Assembly: GCA_963931685.1 (NCBI GenBank)
Contig: OZ007038.1
Span: forward strand, 529,964-593,963
From: an uncultured Bacilli bacterium
GTDB lineage: Bacteria; Bacillota_I; Bacilli_A; RF39; UBA660
Direction: 5' to 3'
Length of the DNA: 64,000 nucleotides
Shown here: positions 6,478-19,262 of the stretch, in pieces
Numbering within the stretch: position 1 is the first letter of the stretch
Layout of the letters: every line of letters starts with the position of its first letter
The notes under the pieces: model-generated
Told to the model about the DNA's origin: nothing
Databases searched by the model: none
Seen by the model: the letters and a program-made list of their open reading frames with translations, nothing else
Position numbers and translations under genes: made by a program

Positions 6478-7728
6478 ATGAAAAAGTATATAACGAGAAA
6501 TGTTGAAAAAGTTGTTAAAAATTTGTCTCGTCAATTTCCGGTAGTAATGGTTACTGGACCAAGGCAGGTTGGAAAAACTACAATGCTAAGACATATTAAC
6601 AAAGAAATTAATTACGTAACACTAGATGATTTAAATGTACGTAATTTAGCAGTTAATGATCCTGAACTTTTTTTAGAAACATACGAACCACCTTTAATTA
6701 TTGATGAATTTCAATATGTCCCTAATTTACTTTCTTATATTAAAATAAAAGTTGATGAGATGAGAATTGATAAAACTTTTAATGATACTAAAAGTTTTGA
6801 TGCTTTATATTATTTAACTGGTTCTCAAAGTTTTGTTTCTATGAAAAATGTTAGTGAATCATTAGCTGGAAGGGTTGGAATTATAGAAATGAATGGACTT
6901 TCTACTTCTGAATTACAAGGTATAGATAAAATGCCATTTGTTCCTAATATTTTGCAATTGAAAAATAATTTGAATAATAAGATGGAAACAAATAAACTTT
7001 TTGATAGAATTTTTAAAGGAAGTTATCCAGAACTTTATGTTAACGAAAATATTAGTGTTGAAACTTTTTATAGTAGTTACGTTAAAACTTATATTGAGCG
7101 AGATATTAGAGATTTAATAAATATTAGTGATGAAATTAAATTTATGAAATTTATGACAAGTGTGGCTGCTAGAACTGGTGAAGAATTAAATATTACTACG
7201 GTGGCAAATGATGCGGAGATAAGTGTTCCTACAGCTAATAACTGGTTGTCTATTTTAGTCAACACAGGATTGGTAGTGCTTTTAGAACCTTTTTCTAATA
7301 ATGTGATTAAAAGAACAATTAAAAGACCCAAAATCTATTTTATGGATACTGGACTTGCGTGTTATTTAGCTAAATATCCTAGTTCGGATATATTGGAAGT
7401 AAGTAGTTATTCGGGACATATTTTTGAAACATATGTGGTAAGTGAAATTATTAAAAGTTATGCTAATAACGGAAAAGATTATAAGAAATATTTATTTTAT
7501 TATAGAGATGAAAAAAAGAGGGAAATTGATTTGATTATAGATTATGAAAATATATTATATCCTGTAGAAATAAAGAAAGGTAAACATCCAAATGGTGAAT
7601 GTGTAAAAAATTTTTCTGTTCTTAATAAATTAAATAATGAAATTGCTCAAGGAATTGTTTTGTGTATGATAGACCAAATATTTCCAATTGATAGAAACAA
7701 TTATTATGTACCGATAAGTTATATATGA
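6478..7728 (+). CDS. AAA+ ATPase of the DUF4143 family (ATP-binding protein)
   Basis: Walker A VVMVTGPRQVGKTT and Walker B-like LIIDEFQYV. The C-terminal DUF4143-like region (REIDLIIDYENILYPVEIKKGK) resembles a restriction-endonuclease-like fold. Confidence 0.75.
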   Translation: MKKYITRNVEKVVKNLSRQFPVVMVTGPRQVGKTTMLRHINKEINYVTLDDLNVRNLAVNDPELFLETYEPPLIIDEFQYVPNLLSYIKIKVDEMRIDKTFNDTKSFDALYYLTGSQSFVSMKNVSESLAGRVGIIEMNGLSTSELQGIDKMPFVPNILQLKNNLNNKMETNKLFDRIFKGSYPELYVNENISVETFYSSYVKTYIERDIRDLINISDEIKFMKFMTSVAARTGEELNITTVANDAEISVPTANNWLSILVNTGLVVLLEPFSNNVIKRTIKRPKIYFMDTGLACYLAKYPSSDILEVSSYSGHIFETYVVSEIIKSYANNGKDYKKYLFYYRDEKKREIDLIIDYENILYPVEIKKGKHPNGECVKNFSVLNKLNNEIAQGIVLCMIDQIFPIDRNNYYVPISYI

Positions 7729-10863: not shown

Positions 10864-11808
10864 ATGAATAGACAAATGTTTTTTGAATTACTTAAAGAAA
10901 ATATATGCATTCAAGATGAAGCTTTAAAAAAATTAGTATGGGTATTATATAATAATTTTTATGGAGAAAATAGTATTAAAGAAAATATCTTACTTATAGG
11001 TGATCTTGGAAGTGGAAAAACTACTATGATAAAGGAAACTGCAGAACTTATGGATATACCGATGGGTGAGGTTTATAATGCTTTTTCATCAAATGAAATA
11101 AATTATGATTTGATTGCTAGCGGTTTATTTCAAATGAATATGAATGGTAATAATGGTGGAGAAGGTATTTTATTACTTCATGATTTTCAAGATAGTTTTA
11201 TTTATGGTCATAACCAAGAATTTAATGCAATGATAGCTTCTGGAATTTTGAATTTAGGTGAATATGGTTATTTTAATTCATCTGATGTAATATTTATTGG
11301 TGAGATAGATACTGATAATGTTCGTAATATTTTTGCAGGGAGTCAAGGATTATCTGATTTAGATAATGATGATTTTGTATCGCCAACTTTAAATATTATA
11401 AAAGATTATTTATCAAAGGCAAACCGGATTACTGAAGATGAAAATGGTGATAGATCAGCAAATGTTGGTTTTGAAAAATATATTTCAGATATAATTAGAA
11501 ATCGTTTTTTAAGTTCTAATAGTATGCAAGCTTTTAAAAGAAAAATTTATATGGAAGATATGGGTACTGTGGAAATAGTTAAAGCTTTATCATCACCAAT
11601 TTCTGCTTTGAATTTATATAAAGATGATTTATTAGATGAATATATCGATTCAGATGTGTTTAGAAAAAAGGTTGCAGGATATATCTTAGAAAGTGGAGAA
11701 GGTCTTCATGCGACTGAAGCGGCTATTGAAAATACCTTTATAAATGATGCTAAAAAAAATAAGAAAGTTTTAAAAAAAGATTCTTTGTTTATTTCTCGCA
11801 GGAAATAA
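10864..11808 (+). CDS. Degenerate ClpX/HslU-like AAA+ protein, paralogue 1. Walker A is intact and Walker B has no Asp-Glu pair.
   Basis: LKKLVWVLYNNFYGE...ENILLIGDLGSGKTTMIKETAELMDIPMGEV parallels ClpX (AKKVLAVAVYNHYKR...[27 protein letters not shown]). The Walker B equivalent reads GILLLHDFQD, where ClpX has GIVYIDEIDK. The ClpX zinc-binding N-domain and C-terminal region are absent. Confidence 0.5.
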   Translation: MNRQMFFELLKENICIQDEALKKLVWVLYNNFYGENSIKENILLIGDLGSGKTTMIKETAELMDIPMGEVYNAFSSNEINYDLIASGLFQMNMNGNNGGEGILLLHDFQDSFIYGHNQEFNAMIASGILNLGEYGYFNSSDVIFIGEIDTDNVRNIFAGSQGLSDLDNDDFVSPTLNIIKDYLSKANRITEDENGDRSANVGFEKYISDIIRNRFLSSNSMQAFKRKIYMEDMGTVEIVKALSSPISALNLYKDDLLDEYIDSDVFRKKVAGYILESGEGLHATEAAIENTFINDAKKNKKVLKKDSLFISRRK

Positions 11809-11824
11809 AATCGCGGAGGTATTT

Positions 11825-12763
11825 ATGGAAACAAAAGAATTATATAATGAATTGAGAGATTTGCTATGTAATCAAGATAAGGCTTTAAAAGATCTTGTTT
11901 GGACTATAGCTAGAAATAGAAAATTAAATAGACCTAAAAATGCTTTATTGATAGGTGAACTAGGTAGTGGAAAAACTACAATGGTAGAATTAACTGCTCG
12001 TAAAATGGGTATACCTGTAGTTGGAATGTCAGGTTTTTTTACTCCACAAGGAGTAGAACCTATGGTTTTATATAATGCTTTTATGGGATTGTTTGCTGAA
12101 AATAATCAAAAAGGATGTCAAGGAATTGTTTTGATTCATGATATGAAAGATGTTTTTCTATATGGAGGTTTTTCTACTTTAAATTCTATAATTACTGCTG
12201 GTTCTTTTACTTATAATAATCATGTTATTGATGTTAAAAGTACTATGTTTATTGGTGAGATTGATAATAATGGTTTAGAAGATTGTTTTACTTCAAATCC
12301 TATATATACAATTGATGATATAGATAAAGCAATTTATCCTTCGGTATGTAGTAGTGATGAAGTTACTGAAGTAATTAGCAATATAATAGATGTTTATGGT
12401 GGAGTTACTGATGAAGAAGTAGATAGTAATATGTTTTATGATCAATATAGGGAAGCATTAAAAAAGACTTTTTTATCTCCAGAGTGCAGTAAAGTATTTA
12501 ATAAAAAAATTTTTATGGATGCGATTGGTTTTGAGGATATTAAAAAAGCCTTAAGTTCTCCAGTATCAGAATTACAAACATATAGTGATGATTTATGCGA
12601 AGAATATATTTCATCACCGCAATTTATAAATTCAGTGGCTGGACATATCAGTGAGAGTTTAGTTGGTTTACATGATTTAGATGATGCCGTTAGAGATGTA
12701 TCTAGAATAGATAGTAAAAGGAAGATTAAGGTTTATAAAGAGAATTCTTTATTAAAATTATAG
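11825..12763 (+). CDS. Degenerate ClpX/HslU-like AAA+ protein, paralogue 2 (tandem duplicate of the preceding gene)
   Basis: ALKDLVWTIARNRKLNRPKNALLIGELGSGKTTMVELTARKMGIPVVGMSG. The Walker B equivalent is GIVLIHDMKD. The product is collinear with paralogue 1 throughout, e.g. the shared C-terminal block IFMDAIGFEDIKKALSSPVSELQTYSDDL matching IYMEDMGTVEIVKALSSPISALNLYKDDL. Confidence 0.5.
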   Translation: METKELYNELRDLLCNQDKALKDLVWTIARNRKLNRPKNALLIGELGSGKTTMVELTARKMGIPVVGMSGFFTPQGVEPMVLYNAFMGLFAENNQKGCQGIVLIHDMKDVFLYGGFSTLNSIITAGSFTYNNHVIDVKSTMFIGEIDNNGLEDCFTSNPIYTIDDIDKAIYPSVCSSDEVTEVISNIIDVYGGVTDEEVDSNMFYDQYREALKKTFLSPECSKVFNKKIFMDAIGFEDIKKALSSPVSELQTYSDDLCEEYISSPQFINSVAGHISESLVGLHDLDDAVRDVSRIDSKRKIKVYKENSLLKL

Positions 12764-12765
12764 AT

Positions 12766-13563
12766 ATGGAAAAATATCAAGAAGTAGAAAGAAGTATTAT
12801 TAAAAAATTTAGACCATCTATATGGCATAATTTTGTTAAAGCAGTTAGTAATTATGATTTGATTGGTGAAAATGATAAGATAGCTGTTTGTATAAGTGGT
12901 GGTAAAGATTCTTTTTTGCTTGCTAAATGTTTAGAAGAACTTCAAAAACATGGAAAGATTAAATTTGATTTAGAATATGTTATCATGAATCCAGGGTATA
13001 CTGATGAGGTTTTAAATAAAATTAAGGGTAATTTAAAAATTTTGAATATAAATGCTCATATATTTGAAAGCCCTATTTTTAAAATTATTAGTAAAGAAAA
13101 AAATCCTTGTTATTTATGTGCTAAAATGCGAAGAGGATATTTGTATAATTATGCTAAGGAACTTGGGTGTAATAAAATTGCATTAGGTCATCACTTTGAT
13201 GATGTTTTAGAGACTATTTTAATGAATTTAATATATAATGGAATGTATGCGGGAATGATGCCTAAACTTAGAAGTGATAATTTTGAGGGTATGGAGCTTA
13301 TTAGGCCTTTATATTTAATTAGAGAAGATAGTATTTTAGATTGGGTCAAATATAATAATTTATCATTTATTGATTGTGCGTGCAGTGTTACTAAAAAAGA
13401 TATAGGTAAACGTAAAGAGATGAAAGAATTAGTTAAAACTTTGAAAGAATATTATGCAGATGCAGATAGGAATATATTTAATTCTATGCATAATGTAAAA
13501 TTAGATAAAGTAATAAATTATTTTTACGAAGATAAAGCAAATGTCTTTTTAGATAAATATTAA
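12766..13563 (+). CDS. ttcA: tRNA-cytidine(32) 2-sulfurtransferase, TtcA family (PP-loop ATPase with an Fe-S cluster)
   Basis: CISGGKDS (PP-loop), CYLCAKMRRGYLY, IALGHHFDDVLETILMNLIYNGMYAGMMPKL, IRPLYLIRE and IDCACS are collinear with E. coli TtcA (VCLSGGKDS, CSLCSRLRRGILY, IALGHHRDDILQT...PPKL, PCNLCGS). Confidence 0.75.
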   Translation: MEKYQEVERSIIKKFRPSIWHNFVKAVSNYDLIGENDKIAVCISGGKDSFLLAKCLEELQKHGKIKFDLEYVIMNPGYTDEVLNKIKGNLKILNINAHIFESPIFKIISKEKNPCYLCAKMRRGYLYNYAKELGCNKIALGHHFDDVLETILMNLIYNGMYAGMMPKLRSDNFEGMELIRPLYLIREDSILDWVKYNNLSFIDCACSVTKKDIGKRKEMKELVKTLKEYYADADRNIFNSMHNVKLDKVINYFYEDKANVFLDKY

Positions 13564-13591
13564 CTATAATTTAAATGTTATAGTTTTTTTA
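13562..13591 (+). terminator. Rho-independent terminator after ttcA
   Basis: The hairpin AACTATAA-tttaaatg-TTATAGTT is followed by TTTTT. Confidence 0.7.
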
Positions 13592-13680
13592 TATATATAT
13601 ATAAAAATTATATAGCTATGATTTTTAATTATATTATTATACTTTAAAAAAAATAGATTGTAAGGTATAATATAGGGGAA

Positions 13681-14274
13681 ATGGAGGGTATTATGGCTAA
13701 AGAAAGAGAAGTTACAATTCTTAATATTGATGAGGAGACGTTTATTAAACGATTGTTAGAACATGGTGCAATTAAAAAGGATGAATTTTTACAAAGAAGA
13801 TATACATATGATTTTAATCCAGTAATGCCTAATAAATGGATTAGACTTAGGACAAATGGGAAAAAAACAACTTTGACTATTAAAGAGATAAGGGATAAGA
13901 ATGCTATTGATGGAACAATGGAATTAGAAACGGTTGTTGGTGATTTTGATGTTATGAATAGTATCTTAAAAGAACTAGGATATGTTTATAGAAATTATCA
14001 AGAGAATTACCGAAAAATTTATGTTATAGAGAATGTAGAAATTTCAATTGATTCTTGGCCTATGATACCAACTTATGCTGAAATAGAGGGCAAGAGTAAT
14101 GAAGATGTTGTACGAACTTTAGAATTATTAGGTTATACTTTAGAAGAGGCAACTACTTTAGATGTTACTTCTATTTATAATGAAATATATGGTATTGATT
14201 TACTTGGAATAAAAGAATTAAAGTTTGAAGGGAGTAATCATGAAAGTATGTTGGAACATAACAAGCAAATGTAA
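13681..14274 (+). CDS. CYTH-domain protein (triphosphate tunnel metalloenzyme fold; CyaB/thiamine-triphosphatase-like). The N-terminal ExExK motif is divergent.
   Basis: The CYTH-like blocks are WIRLRTNGKKTTLTIKE, KIYVIENVEISIDSWP and YAEIEGKS. Compare B. subtilis YjbK: ALRIRHKG..TLTLK, FDHSFY and YEIEFEV. The alternative start at 13693 (MAKE...) has RBS GGAGGG. Confidence 0.55.
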   Translation: MEGIMAKEREVTILNIDEETFIKRLLEHGAIKKDEFLQRRYTYDFNPVMPNKWIRLRTNGKKTTLTIKEIRDKNAIDGTMELETVVGDFDVMNSILKELGYVYRNYQENYRKIYVIENVEISIDSWPMIPTYAEIEGKSNEDVVRTLELLGYTLEEATTLDVTSIYNEIYGIDLLGIKELKFEGSNHESMLEHNKQM

Positions 14275-14977
14275 TAGGAATTGTAAGTATTGTTTTAAAT
14301 TTAATAAAGATGATTTGTCTTTAGAAAAAAATAAAAAGGTACTTGATAATTTAGTTAAACTTGGGGTAAAAAAAATTTCGTGGACTGGCGGAGAACCTTT
14401 TTTATACAAGGAGCTTCCTATATTATTAAAATTAAGTAAAAAATATGGAATTATTAATTCTGTAAATACTAATTTAACAACTGTTGATATAGATAATTTA
14501 AAAGAAAAAATTGAAAATATTGATAGACTGATTATTTCTTTGGATTTTGTTCGTGATGATCTAAATTTAAAATATGGCATTGGTAAAGATTATTATTTAC
14601 ATGTGTCAAAGATTTTGAAAAAAATTAAAGATATTAATCCTGATATAATTATACAATTGAATACAGTATTATTTAGCGGAAATATTTCTCGTATGAATGA
14701 GTTATATGAAGAGATTAATAAATATAATATAGATTATTGGAAAATAATAAGATTTTTACCAATTAGAGGAAAAGCATACGCAGAAAAAGATGTTTTAGCA
14801 ATCACGGATGAACAGTTTGAGAATTTTGTTTCTCAGTTTAATAATAGAAAACAAAAATTTAAAATAATTATTCATGGATTAACAGAAATGGAAAAAAAGC
14901 ATATTATTGTGTTAAGTTCAGGAAAGCTTATTTATAGTGAAAAGGGGCAGGATGTGGAAGTTAAATCTTTAATATGA
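14240..14977 (+). CDS. Viperin-like radical SAM enzyme (prokaryotic viperin / pVip-like), 246 aa
   Basis: CNRNCKYCF (CxxxCxxC) with ISWTGGEPFL matches viperin CNYKCGFCF...INFSGGEPFL. LIISLDFVRDDLNLKYGIGKD matches [28 protein letters not shown] matches FKINSVI. YWKIIRFLPIRGKA...LAITDEQFENFVSQF matches RWKVFQCLLIEGEN...FVIGDEEFERFLERH. The start at 14240 has RBS GGGAG and overlaps the CYTH gene by 35 nt. The track's TTG start at 14225 is less likely. Confidence 0.65.
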   Translation: MKVCWNITSKCNRNCKYCFKFNKDDLSLEKNKKVLDNLVKLGVKKISWTGGEPFLYKELPILLKLSKKYGIINSVNTNLTTVDIDNLKEKIENIDRLIISLDFVRDDLNLKYGIGKDYYLHVSKILKKIKDINPDIIIQLNTVLFSGNISRMNELYEEINKYNIDYWKIIRFLPIRGKAYAEKDVLAITDEQFENFVSQFNNRKQKFKIIIHGLTEMEKKHIIVLSSGKLIYSEKGQDVEVKSLI

Positions 14978-14993
14978 GGAAAGGAAGTTAATA

Positions 14994-15887
14994 ATGGATA
15001 AAAATATCAACTTAAATTTATATCGAATTTTTTATGAAGTGGCCAAATATCATAGTATTTCAGATGCTGCTAAAAATATGTATTTGTCGCAGCCAGCAAT
15101 TAGTAAAGCTATTAAAAACTTGGAAAGATAATTAGATGTTATGTTGTTTTATAGAACACTAAATGGAATAATTTTGACTGATAAAGGAAAAGAATTATTT
15201 TTATTAGTTGAAGAAGCTTTGAGTAGTTTTAGACAAGCAGAGAAGAAAATGATGGAAAATAAAAATTTAGAAAAAGGTTCTTTATCTATTGGGGTTCGTT
15301 CTAATGTTGCTTCCTTTTATTTGCTTGATAAAATTGCTGATTTTCACAAAAAATACAATAAGATTGATATAGTAATTATTGATAGACCTAGTAGTGAATT
15401 ATTAGAGATGCTTTCCAATAATGAAATTGATTTTGTACTTGATTCGTTATCTGATAAGGATGAATTAGATGGTTTTGATGTAAAACCTTTGGATAATTTT
15501 ACTCATGTTTTTGTAACACTTCCTAATTTGAAAATTTTATCTGATAAAAACGTATATCATTTAAAAGATTTAGAATCACTTCCGCTTATATTACCTGTTT
15601 CCCATAGTTCTCATAGACAATATTTAAATAATTTAGCAAAGGAAAATAATACAGAATTTAATAATGTACTTTCAATTGAAACGAGTGAACTTATTTATAG
15701 TATGGTTAAAAAAGGACTTGGAATAGGGTATATTTTAAAAGATATGGTAAAAGGTGATATTGATAGAGGTAATTTACGAGAAATAAAAATTAAAGAAAAA
15801 TTACCTGATATATCTTTAAATTTGATATGTAAGGAAAAAAATTTAACTGAGGCTCCACGGAGGTTTATAGATGAGTATTTAAAATAA
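14994..15887 (+). pseudogene. LysR-family transcriptional regulator interrupted by an in-frame TAA at 15129-15131 (HTH 14994-15128; effector-binding domain 15141-15887)
   Basis: The ATG at 14994 encodes a classical LysR HTH (LYRIFYEVAKYHSISDAAKNMYLSQPAISKAIKNLER) and then hits TAA. The same frame continues as LDVMLFYRTLNGIILTDKGKELF..., the LysR linker and substrate-binding domain (ORF 15141-15887). The downstream ATG has no RBS. Confidence 0.6.
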
Positions 15888-15909
15888 CATGAAAAAATGT
15901 TATTTTTTT
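15885..15909 (+). terminator. Rho-independent terminator after the lysR remnant
   Basis: The hairpin TAACAT-gaaaaa-ATGTTA is followed by TTTTTTT. Confidence 0.6.
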
Positions 15910-16051
15910 ATTACTTTTTTTGATGGCAATTACTTATAAATATATGACTTTAAACTTTAGTTATATGAATAATTTATAGTTATGTTTTTATGAAATATTA
16001 GTATTTTTACAATGCCTTAATTTGTGATACATTTAAATTGAAGGAGGAAAT

Positions 16052-17530
16052 ATGTATAAGGTAATTGCAATTAGTGGTTATTCTGGTAGTGGTAAAACTA
16101 CTATTAGTGAGGAGATATTAAAAAATTGTAATGATTTAATTTATTTTGATTTTGGTTTTTTATTTAGGCCTGTGACATACTATTTAATGAATGAACTGAA
16201 AATGACTGAAGATACTATTCGTACAATGGTGATGAGTGGAGAGTTAAAGAAAAAAATTAAATTAACTTACAGAGTTTTAGATAATAAAGTTGAAGTAGGA
16301 GTAAATAATAATTTTTATGATTATGATATTTTAAATAGTTTAAAAATGAATATGGATACAGTTATGGTTGGTTCAATAATTGGTGATGAATTAAATGATG
16401 AATTGAGAGTTATAATTGATGATTTAAAGAAAAGTAGTAATATTTTACTTAATGCGAGAAGACCAATTGTGGTATATCCGGATGCGGATTGTCATATTTT
16501 TTTAGAAACTGATTTTGATGAAAGAGTAAGAAGAAAAATGTTGATGAATGGTGAAGATTACGAAACAACTGTAAGTAAACTTATGAAACGTGATCAAAAA
16601 GAGAAATCTAGTGGTTTTTGGGAAAAATATGATTTTACTAAAACTATTGATACTACTGGTTTATCTAAAGAAGAGGTATTACAAAAAGTTTTGAAAATTA
16701 TAAATAACAATTTTGTTTATTTTAATAATTTAACTTTAATTTTAGGTTCTTATAGGTGTAATAAAAATTGTCCATATTGTATTGCAAAGAATAATCAAAA
16801 GTTTTCTGTTTGTGATAATTTGGAACGATTAGATGAAATTTTAAATGAGTTACAAGAAAATGATATACGATTTAAAAGGTTTGTAGTGAGTGGAAATGGT
16901 GAACCATCATTATATTCTTTAGAAGATTTAAGGTTGATAAAGGAAAGTTTACTCAAATATAGGGATTTATTTGAAATAGTTAGAGTACATTCTTCTGGTA
17001 ATATATTTAACGAAGAAGATAAATTTGATATTTTCGGTTTAGCTGATTTACCACTTGAGTTTGAAATCCTTAGAGTTGCTTTAGATTCAAATGTTGATAT
17101 GGACGTGCTTGAATATAACAATGATTATTTAGAAAGTCCATTATTTAAAAGAGGTAATATAAAATGTGATATTGCTTTGACAGATTATTTAGAAAATACT
17201 GATTTATTATTTCAATTAAATCATTTTTTGGAAAATAATCCATCAATTAAAAAGGTTAGATTAAAAAGATTATTAGTAGGGGATAATGATACTACAATAC
17301 AAGCTAAATGGGTTAAAGAACATTCACTTGATAATGATGAAATTCAGAGAGTGGTTAAAGAATTAGGATTAACTTTGAAAAATGGTATTTATCAATCTGA
17401 GGATAGAAAAATTCTTTATAAAATGAGTGGAGATTATGATTTTGATTATGTTGTTAATGCAGGTGAATTTCAAAATTATGAAAATAAAAAATGCCATATC
17501 AAAGTTTTGAGAAGAAAGTTAGGTGGTTAA
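16052..17530 (+). CDS. Fusion protein: N-terminal cytidylate kinase (Cmk)-like P-loop NMP kinase domain (aa 1 to ~222) plus C-terminal viperin-like radical SAM domain (aa ~225-492)
   Basis: The N-terminal half is collinear with B. subtilis Cmk: IAISGYSGSGKTT matches IAIDGPAAAGKST, FDFGFLFRPVTY matches IDTGAMYRAITY, DADCHIFLETDFDERVRRKM matches NAEVKIFLLASVEERAKRRY, and IDTTGLSKEEV matches IDTTSLSIQEV. The C-terminal half carries CNKNCPYC (CxxxCxxC), FVVSGNGEPSL, ILRVALDSNVDMDVL (viperin [16 protein letters not shown]) and KKVRLKRLLVGDND (viperin VRWKVFQCLLIEGEN). Confidence 0.7.
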   Translation: MYKVIAISGYSGSGKTTISEEILKNCNDLIYFDFGFLFRPVTYYLMNELKMTEDTIRTMVMSGELKKKIKLTYRVLDNKVEVGVNNNFYDYDILNSLKMNMDTVMVGSIIGDELNDELRVIIDDLKKSSNILLNARRPIVVYPDADCHIFLETDFDERVRRKMLMNGEDYETTVSKLMKRDQKEKSSGFWEKYDFTKTIDTTGLSKEEVLQKVLKIINNNFVYFNNLTLILGSYRCNKNCPYCIAKNNQKFSVCDNLERLDEILNELQENDIRFKRFVVSGNGEPSLYSLEDLRLIKESLLKYRDLFEIVRVHSSGNIFNEEDKFDIFGLADLPLEFEILRVALDSNVDMDVLEYNNDYLESPLFKRGNIKCDIALTDYLENTDLLFQLNHFLENNPSIKKVRLKRLLVGDNDTTIQAKWVKEHSLDNDEIQRVVKELGLTLKNGIYQSEDRKILYKMSGDYDFDYVVNAGEFQNYENKKCHIKVLRRKLGG

Positions 17531-17531
17531 A

Positions 17532-18242
17532 GTGAGACAGATATTAAAATTTATTGGAACAGGAGGTGCTTTTTCTAGTAAGTATGTAAATAATTCGGCT
17601 TATTATTATTTAAAAAATGATGAGATACTTTTATTTGATTGTGGGGAAACGGTGTTTCATGAAATTTTAAAATTAGATATTATAACCGAGAAGATTAAAA
17701 GGATAGATATTGTGATTACACATTTTCATAGTGATCATGTTGGAAGTTTGGGAAGTTTGATTTTTTATTTAAGATTTAAAAAGATAAAAGAAGTTAATGT
17801 GATTTTTCCGATAAAGACACTTCCTTATATGTTATTACAAATTTATGGCATAGATGAAAGTCTTTTTAAAGTAAAATTGCCAGAAGAAGTAGATGGATAT
17901 TATATTAAAGAATATGAACAATTACATGGTGATGTTGATGTAGATGGTAATATTGTATCAATGCCTAGTTATGGATATCATGTGGTGAATGATAATGATA
18001 ATTTCTTTTATAGTGGTGACACATGTATTATAAGTGATATAATATTAGAGAAGTTTAAAAGTAAAGAGATTAAGATAATGTATCACGAAGTTACAACAGA
18101 TGGATATAAATCGCATATGCAGTTAGAAAATTTAGTAGAGATTATTCCTTTTGAGGATAGACAAAGAGTAGTTTGTATGCATATGGGTGATGGTGTAGAT
18201 GTATCAGAAATAGAAAAATTTGGATTAGAAAGTGTGAGGTAA
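17532..18242 (+). CDS. MBL-fold metallo-hydrolase, RNase Z / PhnP-like (possible cyclic-nucleotide or phosphodiester hydrolase)
   Basis: FIGTGGAFSS...LLFDCGE and ITHFHSDHVGSLGS (HxHxDH). A GTG start at 17532 follows RBS AGGTGG directly after the upstream stop. The track's start at 17523 is an alternative. Confidence 0.65.
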   Translation: MRQILKFIGTGGAFSSKYVNNSAYYYLKNDEILLFDCGETVFHEILKLDIITEKIKRIDIVITHFHSDHVGSLGSLIFYLRFKKIKEVNVIFPIKTLPYMLLQIYGIDESLFKVKLPEEVDGYYIKEYEQLHGDVDVDGNIVSMPSYGYHVVNDNDNFFYSGDTCIISDIILEKFKSKEIKIMYHEVTTDGYKSHMQLENLVEIIPFEDRQRVVCMHMGDGVDVSEIEKFGLESVR

Positions 18243-18244
18243 TT

Positions 18245-18820
18245 ATGAAAGAAGAATTAGAAGTTTGTGTGAGATCTTTAGTTCCTTTTGAAGATTTATA
18301 TAATGATATGATAGATTTAGGTTTTCATGTACAGGAAGATTTTGTGTTGAATGATATTTACATGGTTAAAAATGATGTAGAAGTATCTTTAGATAATGAA
18401 AATGTAATTTTTTCTGATTATGTTTTAATTAGAGAAACAGTAGGAAAACGAAAAATGCTTGTTTTAAAACATAAGGAATTAAATTCTAAAGGTGAGATAA
18501 CAAAACAAGAGTCAGTTAAATGTCCAATTACAGATTGTGATAAAGCATATGATTTTATGAAAGCTATCGGTTATAAAAAATTATTTGAAATAAGTGATCA
18601 TAATGTTTTGATGAGTAATGGAAAAAATGAAATTTATATTCAAAGAGTTAAAGGGTTAGGTACTTATGTAGAAATGGAACAAAAGAATTTACTTTTGGAA
18701 AATAATAATGGTAATACAATTGATGAAATGAAAAATGTTTTATGTGATTATAATTTAAAAATTGATACTAGTGATTATTTTGTGAGAAAAGCATATGATG
18801 CTTTAAAAGAAACTGTCTGA
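18245..18820 (+). CDS. Second CYTH-like domain protein (divergent)
   Basis: YVLIRETVGKRKMLVLKHKE, EIYIQRVKGLGTYVEMEQK and the N-terminal EELEVCVR follow the CYTH pattern (RIR..TLK, G.f.EiE). It lies 2 nt after the MBL gene stop. Confidence 0.45.
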   Translation: MKEELEVCVRSLVPFEDLYNDMIDLGFHVQEDFVLNDIYMVKNDVEVSLDNENVIFSDYVLIRETVGKRKMLVLKHKELNSKGEITKQESVKCPITDCDKAYDFMKAIGYKKLFEISDHNVLMSNGKNEIYIQRVKGLGTYVEMEQKNLLLENNNGNTIDEMKNVLCDYNLKIDTSDYFVRKAYDALKETV

Positions 18821-19237
18821 TTGTTATTACGCATATCCGTTGTTTCCTTTATTTATGGTTTAAATTTATAATTAAACTAAAAGCAGGCTGTGAATACTTG
18901 TTTTTGCATATGTTTATAGATTTATAAATTTAATAAAACTTTTAAAATAAAGAATATAATTGTTATATTTAGCTATGAATAGTAACATCTGATTATGGTA
19001 AATATTGTTAACTTTTGTAAAGATACTGGTCAAACTAAAATATATATGATATAATTTAATTGTCTAAAAGAAGAATACCGCTATGAAAAACCTACTAAGT
19101 ATAACGATTGGGAATCTAATTCGTTGGTGGTGTAGAATACTTTAATTTATTAGAGGATCCTAAAACTGATGATGTGATGCCCACCTGGGAGATCAGGTTT
19201 TTAATTCGTTAAGGTTTCTCTTTTGGACTTTGCTTAA

Positions 19238-19262
19238 AACGGGGATTTTTTCCTCGTTTTTG
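19238..19262. terminator. Rho-independent hairpin that probably acts as a bidirectional terminator. It could also be the 3' end of a putative sRNA from the 18.8-19.3 kb intergenic region.
   Basis: AACGGGGA-ttttt-TCCTCGTT with one G-U pair, followed by TTTTG on the + strand. It lies 15 nt downstream of the rnhC stop on the - strand. Confidence 0.6.

Follow-up and report, generated by a model that had tools for sequence, protein, structure and literature searches.

Does a viperin-like enzyme encoded next to a nucleotide kinase belong to an antiviral system, or to some other pathway of nucleotide chemistry? The question is raised by six open reading frames (ORFs) found at 13.6-18.8 kb of a stretch of 64,000 nucleotides (hereafter the window; GenBank assembly GCA_963931685.1, contig OZ007038.1, positions 529,964 to 593,963) from an uncultured Bacilli bacterium of the RF39 lineage. 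Viperin is a textbook immune enzyme common to bacteria and humans, and its relatives are usually read as makers of chain terminators. An earlier note, made from the DNA sequence alone, had put the locus forward as a candidate defence island with two viperin-like radical S-adenosylmethionine (SAM) enzymes, and its six ORFs were recovered at essentially the positions and with the gene content given there. All of them lie on the + strand and are arranged as two tight operons. Module A comprises ORF1 (CYTH1), ORF2 (pVipL) and a LysR gene, and module B comprises ORF4 (Cmk::rSAM2), ORF5 (MBL, for the metallo-β-lactamase fold) and ORF6 (CYTH2). We propose that the locus encodes a LysR-controlled pathway of nucleotide modification and processing, a variant of the viperin-plus-kinase theme rather than a canonical prokaryotic viperin (pVip), and regard this proposal as having about an even chance of being correct. 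The host is a gut member of Bacillota with a genome of ~1.3 Mb, and the GC content of the window is ~26%. The nearest matches to the host in the genome collection were two Bacilli metagenome-assembled genomes (79%) and Candidatus Coprosoma (78%).

Radical SAM Enzymes and the Fused Kinase

The best NCBIfam match of ORF2 was viperin_w_prok (NF038283), which scored 126.7 bits against a cutoff of 180 and covered positions 2-250 of the 281 in the hidden Markov model (HMM), and TIGR04278 gave 60.3 bits against 450. ORF2 also matched the pVip model of PADLOC at 1.5e-38. When a profile of the ORF2 family was compared with the sequences in PDB, nine viperin sequences were matched at 1e-24 to 1e-28 and the best non-viperin sequence at 5e-13, so that the closest solved structure to ORF2 is viperin by a clear margin. 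QueE, NrdG and BlsE were considered for the two radical SAM enzymes, and for ORF2 each of them scored clearly under viperin. Neither radical SAM domain was assigned to an unrelated family, the outcome that the earlier note had named as refuting its proposal. Altogether, ORF2 is best described, as judged from these profiles, as a viperin-fold enzyme that lies outside the curated viperin family.

The 492-aa protein encoded by ORF4 matched Cytidylate_kin in residues 5-218 (52.5 bits) and radical SAM in residues 233-320 (32.6 bits), in agreement with the claim that the second radical SAM domain is physically fused to a nucleotide kinase. The kinase half covered positions 1-210 of the 211 in PF02224 (cutoff, 26) and matched the Cmk structures 1q3t and 2h92 at ~1e-13, and its score for TIGR00017 (50.7 against a cutoff of 135.55) was well under the level of a cmk equivalog. 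Its P-loop and catalytic arginines are intact: GSGK, R39, R136/137, R158, R161 and R180-D181 were invariant across 19 fusions. The motifs of the nucleoside monophosphate (NMP) site were altered, YLDTGAMYR having been changed to YFDFGxLFR and DGRD to NARR.

The cluster motif CX3CX2C reads CNRNCKYC in ORF2 and CNKNCPYC in ORF4, and no member of either family deviates in its cysteines. An hhalign comparison of the ORF2 and rSAM2 families extended over 215 columns, through the C-terminal strands (96.5%; E 8e-10), and shows them to be homologous end to end. Nevertheless, ORF4 scored only 19.6 bits against the cutoff of 180 for viperin_w_prok. Its best matches in PADLOC were VakA (25.3 bits) and pVip (22.3 bits over ~50 residues), and no match to the pVip-kinase fusion model of PADLOC (PDLC02905) was found at E<=0.1; ORF2 matched the viperin half of that model with 71.2 bits. 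Thus, of the two viperin-like paralogues that had been proposed, ORF2 is indeed nearest to viperin, neither reaches the curated cutoff, and the rSAM2 domain can at most be called viperin-related.

CYTH Proteins and the MBL-Fold Hydrolase

Both of the CYTH genes claimed for the locus were recovered, ORF1 by PF01928, for which its 24.9 bits exceed the cutoff of 23.2, and ORF6 by a sub-cutoff match to TIGR00318 (cyaB) together with the hhalign comparison with the ORF1 family. The best PDB match of the CYTH1 family profile was archaeal SaTTM (7ns8; 2.4e-15), which carries the annotation triphosphate tunnel metalloenzyme (TTM) and which we take to be a triphosphatase, not a cyclase. CYTH1 has the complete set of tunnel residues, and thirteen charged ones (E4, E6, K48, R51, R53, K64, E77, E79, R107, E116, D120, E130 and E132) were invariant in 11 orthologues. 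At the lysine position of the ExExK motif, the Bacilli-type loci have either Thr or Arg, and Lys itself is found in L026 and L027, the two loci that diverge most. CYTH2 had no Pfam match, and its match to TIGR00318 (1e-10, 41.8 bits) was under the cutoff of 57.95, as was that of CYTH1 (6e-10, 39.2 bits). CYTH2 was aligned with the CYTH1 family by hhalign at 93.8% probability, and E6, D37, R63, K75, K77, E143, E145 and K182 are its invariant residues. We regard CYTH2 as a divergent paralogue of CYTH1, assignable from these comparisons at the superfamily level. Its best PDB matches were class IV adenylyl cyclases, albeit weak (E 0.005).

ORF5 carries the metal-site motif HFHSDH (HxHxDH). It scored 47.7 against a cutoff of 50 for PF23023, in residues 8-96 only, and 26.7 against 400 for NF041851. 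In PDB it matched 7fct at 1e-28 and Apyc1 (7u2r) at 1.8e-19, the latter over residues 8-226, and the alignments with Apyc1 structures and with 7fct run along the whole of ORF5. The best relative, 7fct, is an MBL without annotation, and a literature search gave no identity for it. The call of an MBL hydrolase is upheld, and ORF5 probably belongs to the branch of phosphodiesterases that includes Apyc1 and RNase Z.

The combination of CYTH proteins with a phosphodiesterase-like MBL invites a reading as a second-messenger circuit, in which one or both of the CYTH proteins would be class-IV-type cyclases, the Apyc1-like MBL would degrade a cyclic NMP (cNMP), the radical SAM enzymes would make or modify the messenger and LysR would be its receptor. 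Both CYTH proteins match cyaB, the best structural matches of CYTH2 are class IV cyclases, and CYTH2 adjoins the MBL. Chromosomal Apyc1 homologues are reported to cleave all cNMPs and sometimes to adjoin a cyclase without an effector (PMC11724313). Fusions of radical SAM enzymes to LysR recur, and module A stands 5' of varied downstream operons (see below for the details). On the other hand, both CYTH proteins fall short of the cyaB cutoff, CYTH1 has its nearest solved relative in SaTTM, presumably no cyclase, and the MBL scores under the Pfam cutoff for Apyc1 and far under that of NF041851. Furthermore, PHP or NUDIX proteins in place of the MBL fit the removal of phosphate better than the turnover of a cNMP. 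We therefore consider a messenger circuit to be quite doubtful.

Conservation and Linkage of the Gene Set

The Cmk::rSAM2 fusion family comprised ~45 clusters of 50-98% identity, the relatives carrying no name. Counting one genome per species, we found the fusion in 12 gut Bacillota species, eight of which have all six genes and two of which have module B only, the remaining two being on truncated contigs. The cluster occurs in at least three genomic contexts: the six genes lie between ttcA and rnhC in close relatives and between vanY and the S10 ribosomal operon in L010 (~52% identity). In L030, all of the components are in one operon and the kinase is unfused. The two modules are separable and each occurs alone, module B in L009, L018 and L020 and module A in L111, where it adjoins a nucleoside phosphorylase, and in L113. 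In relatives from Clostridia, CYTH::Cmk fusions (L026) accompany rSAM2, a CYTH2-like gene and a PHP or NUDIX gene in the slot of the MBL. The linkage of CYTH and phosphoesterase genes with the radical SAM genes, on which the earlier note had made its proposal depend, thus holds across genera and contexts.

The partners recur beyond the cluster itself. An exhaustive search with the ORF2 profile gave 205 clusters at E<=1e-30 with a continuous gradient of scores, and viperin_w_prok was the best family for all of ten sampled members, with sub-cutoff scores of 111-166 bits. Fusions of an ORF2-like domain to a complete LysR (HTH_1 and LysR_substrate) were found by domain scan in P0147, P0152, P0165 and P0180 and by gene-call annotation in P0162. 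Loci of this type are L030:4381-6069 and L115:6001-7686, and a CYTH gene lies near each LysR fusion. The operons 3' of these fusions vary, comprising either an NMT1-type ABC transporter and a phosphoenolpyruvate (PEP)-utilising enzyme or NUDIX and AP_endonuc_2. Other ORF2-like domains are fused to a PfkB kinase (P0149; L118:6001-7653, with a divergent LysR gene), a Ppx/GppA phosphatase (P0278) or the polyamine-synthase domain BpsA_C (P0204). Across the group, the neighbours are CYTH, NUDIX, an AP_endonuc_2-family protein, the NMT1-type ABC transporter and PEP-utilising enzymes. Altogether, a kinase, a tri- or polyphosphate enzyme, a phosphoesterase and LysR are the recurring partners of the ORF2-like group.

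All six genes were under purifying selection, with dN/dS of 0.1-0.27 in comparison with three relatives, and the ORFs other than LysR are all intact. The effector domain of LysR scored 110 bits. Its ORF and that of the helix-turn-helix (HTH) domain share one frame and are parted by a single TAA, which confirms the broken LysR of the earlier note, so that HTH_1 and LysR_substrate are both present but not in one polypeptide. The position of the TAA is occupied by Glu in relatives, and intact orthologues of 297 aa are found in L006 and L010; LysR is also intact in the relative L014 (OZ007022.1). The split was called at all five places listed, which come from five different samples, and the stop is thus no read error.

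With a regulator in this state, the locus could be taken for a decaying or coincidental cluster without a joint function here, its LysR dead and its other genes unrelated housekeeping paralogues; members with housekeeping roles are known in all three of the Cmk, MBL and CYTH families. The recurrence of the gene set across genera and contexts stands against such a reading, as do the domain fusions that tie the components together, the translational coupling of the genes and the selection on intact ORFs described above. We hold a coincidental cluster to be very improbable, conservation and fusions having largely refuted it.

A Proposed Pathway of Nucleotide Modification and Processing

Linkage and fusions together suggest that the proteins of the locus act on one phosphorylated small molecule, and the folds suggest that this is most probably a nucleotide whose ribose is altered by radical chemistry. 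Both radical SAM enzymes come with a CYTH partner of their own, the non-homologous MBL, PHP and NUDIX proteins occupy one slot, and a Ppx/GppA fusion occurs; these observations point to the removal of phosphate after the modification. Thus, a trimmed or cyclic modified nucleotide would be expected rather than a ddhNTP (3'-deoxy-3',4'-didehydro-nucleoside triphosphate). Since LysR is co-transcribed or fused, transporters occur in related loci and the flanking genes are housekeeping genes, metabolism or signalling appears to suit the locus better than defence.

All steps of the mechanism that follows are inferred. The Cmk-like domain would phosphorylate an NMP, probably pyrimidine-like and not plain CMP, and pass the product to the fused rSAM2, in parallel with CMPK2 and viperin. 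The radical SAM enzymes would attack the ribose of a phosphorylated nucleoside by radical chemistry of the viperin type. The CYTH enzymes would process the triphosphate end, be it that of the substrate or of the product, and would either hydrolyse it or cyclise it with loss of pyrophosphate. The MBL, or PHP or NUDIX in the relatives, may then cut the remaining phosphoester. LysR may sense a metabolite of the pathway and control module B.

Several observations weigh against this proposal. The profile of the ORF2 family was aligned to a human viperin sequence of 361 aa, in which Cys83/87/90 stand at the expected positions. In that alignment, ORF2 keeps the equivalents of K120, N222 and K247 of mouse viperin and carries the substitutions N77C, H79N, R194I, K220Q, R245Y and Y302I (the last with an adjacent His). 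The NxH motif is missing from ORF2, as is the C-terminal tail, which in viperin closes over the nucleotide. The changed positions, Arg194, Lys220, Arg245 and Tyr302 among them, are what we take to be triphosphate-binding or catalytic sites of viperin, the roles of these residues reportedly going back to the structural work of Fenwick et al. For rSAM2, the PDB sequence profile of ORF4 yielded relatives of the Cmk half only, with neither a viperin nor any solved family for the radical SAM half, and a Foldseek search with rSAM2 did not rank viperin at all. The altered NMP site of the kinase makes even a "pyrimidine" substrate a guess, and CYTH2, with its reduced catalytic set, could bind its ligand without acting on it as an enzyme. 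Finally, LysR is broken in this genome, and its nonsense codon means that regulation is probably lost or altered here.

The residues and the tail that ORF2 lacks also bear on the alternative from which we started, namely a canonical anti-phage system in which pVipL, and perhaps rSAM2, would make ddhNTPs from the nucleoside triphosphates (NTPs) supplied by the fused kinase, with CYTH and MBL protecting the host or maturing the product. The PADLOC match of ORF2, the rank of viperin as its best structural match and the association with a kinase, which is typical of viperins, speak for such a system, and so does a patchy distribution over at least three genomic locations. A precedent in defence is the validated Ophion system (bioRxiv 10.1101/2025.09.30.679545), in which a PHP phosphoesterase and a nucleotide enzyme accompany a radical SAM enzyme related to viperin. 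With the NxH motif, the C-terminal tail and the equivalents of Arg194, Lys220, Arg245 and Tyr302 lost, a ddhNTP product is not a safe inference, and the reading as a viperin defence island that makes ddhNTP has support only in part. The sub-cutoff score of ORF2 and the failure of ORF4 to match the pVip-kinase fusion model also argue against canonical defence. No recognised defence domain was found among the neighbour genes with Pfam annotation, and the ORF2 family was absent from the viral contigs searched (IMG/VR). The coupling or fusion to LysR and the transporters in related loci are atypical of defence, and hydrolysis of the triphosphate would inactivate a chain terminator. Nor is the reading as a defence island, as had been suggested for the locus, supported by its surroundings: its flanks are housekeeping genes in every context, its GC content equals that of the flanks, it shows no integrase or repeat signature, and it is wired to LysR. 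Overall, we judge the canonical pVip system to be an unlikely explanation.

One more specific scenario deserves mention as a tentative idea. A short viperin-fold radical SAM enzyme and CYTH may make a nucleotide-derived molecule that is read by LysR, so that viperin chemistry would have a use not recognised so far, in regulation or anaerobic nucleotide metabolism and not in immunity. In that case, branches of nucleoside processing further down the pathway would be represented by module B and by the rSAM2 family at large, which is present in gut Alphaproteobacteria, Melainabacteria and Bacilli.

Comparison with Known Systems

The gene combination had been presented as one that matches no described system, and our literature search bears this out: no description was found of viperin-like enzymes with CYTH, MBL and LysR partners, nor of an association of CYTH with radical SAM enzymes. 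The pVips with kinases (Bernheim et al. 2021; PADLOC pVip and pVip-kinase; NF038283) and the vertebrate pair of viperin and CMPK2 likewise link a viperin-fold radical SAM enzyme to an NMP kinase, and the pVip-kinase fusion has the same order as ORF4, kinase at the N-terminus and radical SAM at the C-terminus, and a similar size (474 model positions vs. 492). Unlike pVips, ORF2 is 245 aa long, scores under the cutoff and is without the C-terminal tail and several of the NTP-binding or catalytic residues. The kinase of ORF4 is of the bacterial Cmk type, in contrast to the CMPK2/Tmk-like kinases, and its radical SAM domain gave no PDLC02905 match at E<=0.1. The conserved partners (CYTH, phosphoesterase and LysR) and a context other than a defence island further set the locus apart from pVips. 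In sum, it departs from the viperin-plus-kinase arrangement in the length and active-site residues of the enzyme, in having a second radical SAM paralogue, in its two CYTH proteins and phosphoesterase, and in its regulator.

Four eukaryotic fusions of a viperin-type domain to a triphosphate-acting domain, mentioned in the literature without characterisation, are alike in their physical linkage, whereas the linkage here is by operon, twice per locus, and bacterial. Ophion is an anti-jumbo-phage system of the radical SAM enzyme OpnA, the PHP protein OpnB and the phosphoribosyltransferase OpnC. As in our locus, a phosphoesterase and a nucleotide enzyme stand with a radical SAM enzyme that is akin to the pVips without being one of them, and the clostridial relatives of module B use PHP. 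Ophion differs in having no CYTH, kinase or LysR and in residing in Gammaproteobacteria next to Juk, a distinction drawn from its published description. With the Apyc1/YhfI MBLs (Hobbs 2022; Tesson 2024), ORF5 shares HxHxDH and a full-length alignment, whereas its scores are below the PF23023 and NF041851 cutoffs and its best PDB relative is 7fct instead. The tunnel fold and its charged residues are common to the CYTH proteins here and the CYTH/TTM enzymes SaTTM and CyaB, the class IV cyclase, although neither of the former reaches the cyaB cutoff. Plant TTM1/2 are fusions of a kinase and CYTH. This P-loop kinase::CYTH architecture parallels that of the relative from Clostridia, L026.

Operon Structure and Transcription Signals

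Within module A, ORF1 and ORF2 overlap by 35 nt and ORF2 is followed by LysR after a gap of 16 nt. ORF4 opens the second operon past a hairpin with a T-run and a spacer of 139 nt; ORF4 and ORF5 overlap or abut, and 2 nt separate ORF5 from ORF6 (Table 1). Two hairpins, at 13562 and 15886, are more stable than shuffled versions of their sequence and make plausible terminators. The third terminator that had been assigned to the operons, at ~19238 (19229-19258; -12.4 kcal/mol), is a real hairpin lying 410 nt beyond the ORF6 stop. It stands directly 3' of a 6S RNA (ssrS) gene at 19058-19233 (+), which was detected as a full-length match to Rfam RF00013 (49.9 bits; gathering score, 46.4), and, read on the opposite strand, 3' of rnhC. 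This position indicates that it is not the operon's own terminator, and no convincing terminator was found right after ORF6. The two operons and the first two hairpins therefore stand, while the third hairpin belongs to the 6S RNA gene.

The spacer 5' of ORF4 has 48 invariant columns across seven loci, in which the fusion proteins are down to ~52% identical, and holds TTTACA-16-TACATT with an extended TG. A search of inverted repeats for a LysR box gave low-complexity AT palindromes only, and the conserved blocks of the spacer are the better lead.

Table 1. Features of the six-gene locus (coordinates of the window)
Feature	Coordinates	Strand	Details
AU-rich hairpin and T-run 3' of ttcA; upstream edge of module A	13562..13590	+	9-bp stem, -6.7 kcal/mol, z -2.4, then T7
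Promoter-like site 5' of ORF1	13643..13671	+	TTTAAA-17-TATAAT, 10/12 matches; consensus match only
CYTH1 (ORF1), triphosphate-tunnel (CYTH) protein, 193 aa; alternative ATG 13681	13693..14274	+	PF01928 24.9 bits
pVipL (ORF2), short viperin-fold radical SAM enzyme, 245 aa, CNRNCKYC	14240..14977	+	
LysR-type regulator split by in-frame TAA 15129-15131	14994..15887	+	HTH fragment 14994-15131; effector-domain fragment 15141-15887
Hairpin and T-run closing module A	15886..15912	+	10-bp stem, -7.5 kcal/mol, z -4.3, 0/200 shuffles as good, then T7
Conserved intergenic region, promoter-like elements, repeated TTATA blocks; candidate LysR operator for module B (inferred)	15913..16051	+	
Cmk-like NMP kinase domain, N-terminal in ORF4, residues 1-219	16052..16708	+	PF02224 52.5 bits
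rSAM2, small radical SAM domain, C-terminal in ORF4, residues 220-492, CNKNCPYC, SGNGEPS	16709..17530	+	
MBL-fold phosphodiesterase (ORF5), probable Apyc1/YhfI/RNase Z branch, HFHSDH; alternative GTG start 17523	17532..18242	+	
CYTH2 (ORF6), divergent CYTH protein, 191 aa, reduced tunnel residues	18245..18820	+	TIGR00318 41.8 bits; hhalign to CYTH1 93.8%

Flanking Genes and Distant Relatives

The interval between ttcA and rnhC is a variable spot in which the cluster itself is stable. In L006, a relative of 76% identity, a gene for the IS605 TnpB lies in the spacer between ttcA and CYTH1 (L006:3762-4970), and a 1371-aa SpaA/Cna_B pilin and a sortase are encoded in the spacer between CYTH2 and rnhC (L006:11234-16016). 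A recent horizontal insertion of the cluster was considered and is not supported: the GC content of 0.24-0.27 is the same within the cluster as around it, and a search for an integrase and for flanking repeats gave nothing. Further upstream in the window, two paralogous P-loop proteins of ~313 aa are encoded at 10864-11808 and 11825-12763 (+), with weak N-terminal matches to AAA, TsaE and ClpX-like proteins, none of them above cutoff. The pair (10864-12763) is kept together with ttcA in L006, L015 and L019. According to the gene annotation of the contig, an AAA_14/DUF4143 ATPase gene is located at 6478-7728 (+), between tuf and hisS.

Distant stand-alone relatives of rSAM2 (28-38% identity; L032-L093) were found in gut bacteria of the Alphaproteobacteria, Gastranaerophilales, Bacilli and Clostridia, where they reside in a conserved operon (e.g. 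L035:4549-8813 and L042:5304-11350) with genes for a PnuC-like riboside transporter, a 170-aa nucleoside-2-deoxyribosyltransferase-like protein, which is sometimes fused to the radical SAM domain, and a 296-aa P-loop protein, as well as Ham1/RdgB, an NMNAT-like protein, a CofE-like protein and often LysR. We regard this operon, from its gene content, as probably a second uncharacterised nucleoside pathway. An N-terminal CYTH domain in the 296-aa P-loop protein was considered and dropped, as it received no support from the comparison of HMMs with PDB or from hhalign (~1%). Four phage-like contigs (uncultivated viral genomes, UViGs; L094-L097, e.g. L094:5986-7471) carry an rSAM2-like gene of 32-47% identity without the rest of the cluster. 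The gene is located directly 5' of a 223-aa gene resembling the core of class II aminoacyl-tRNA synthetases and among GIY-YIG endonuclease genes. These viral genes are uninformative on the function of the cluster.

Implications

Being compact, conserved and easy to express, the six genes make the question of their product directly testable. If ORF2-like enzymes do not make ddhNTP, or do not use it in defence, viperin chemistry would have a wider range of functions, and in that case automated "pVip" calls in gut metagenomes would need caution.

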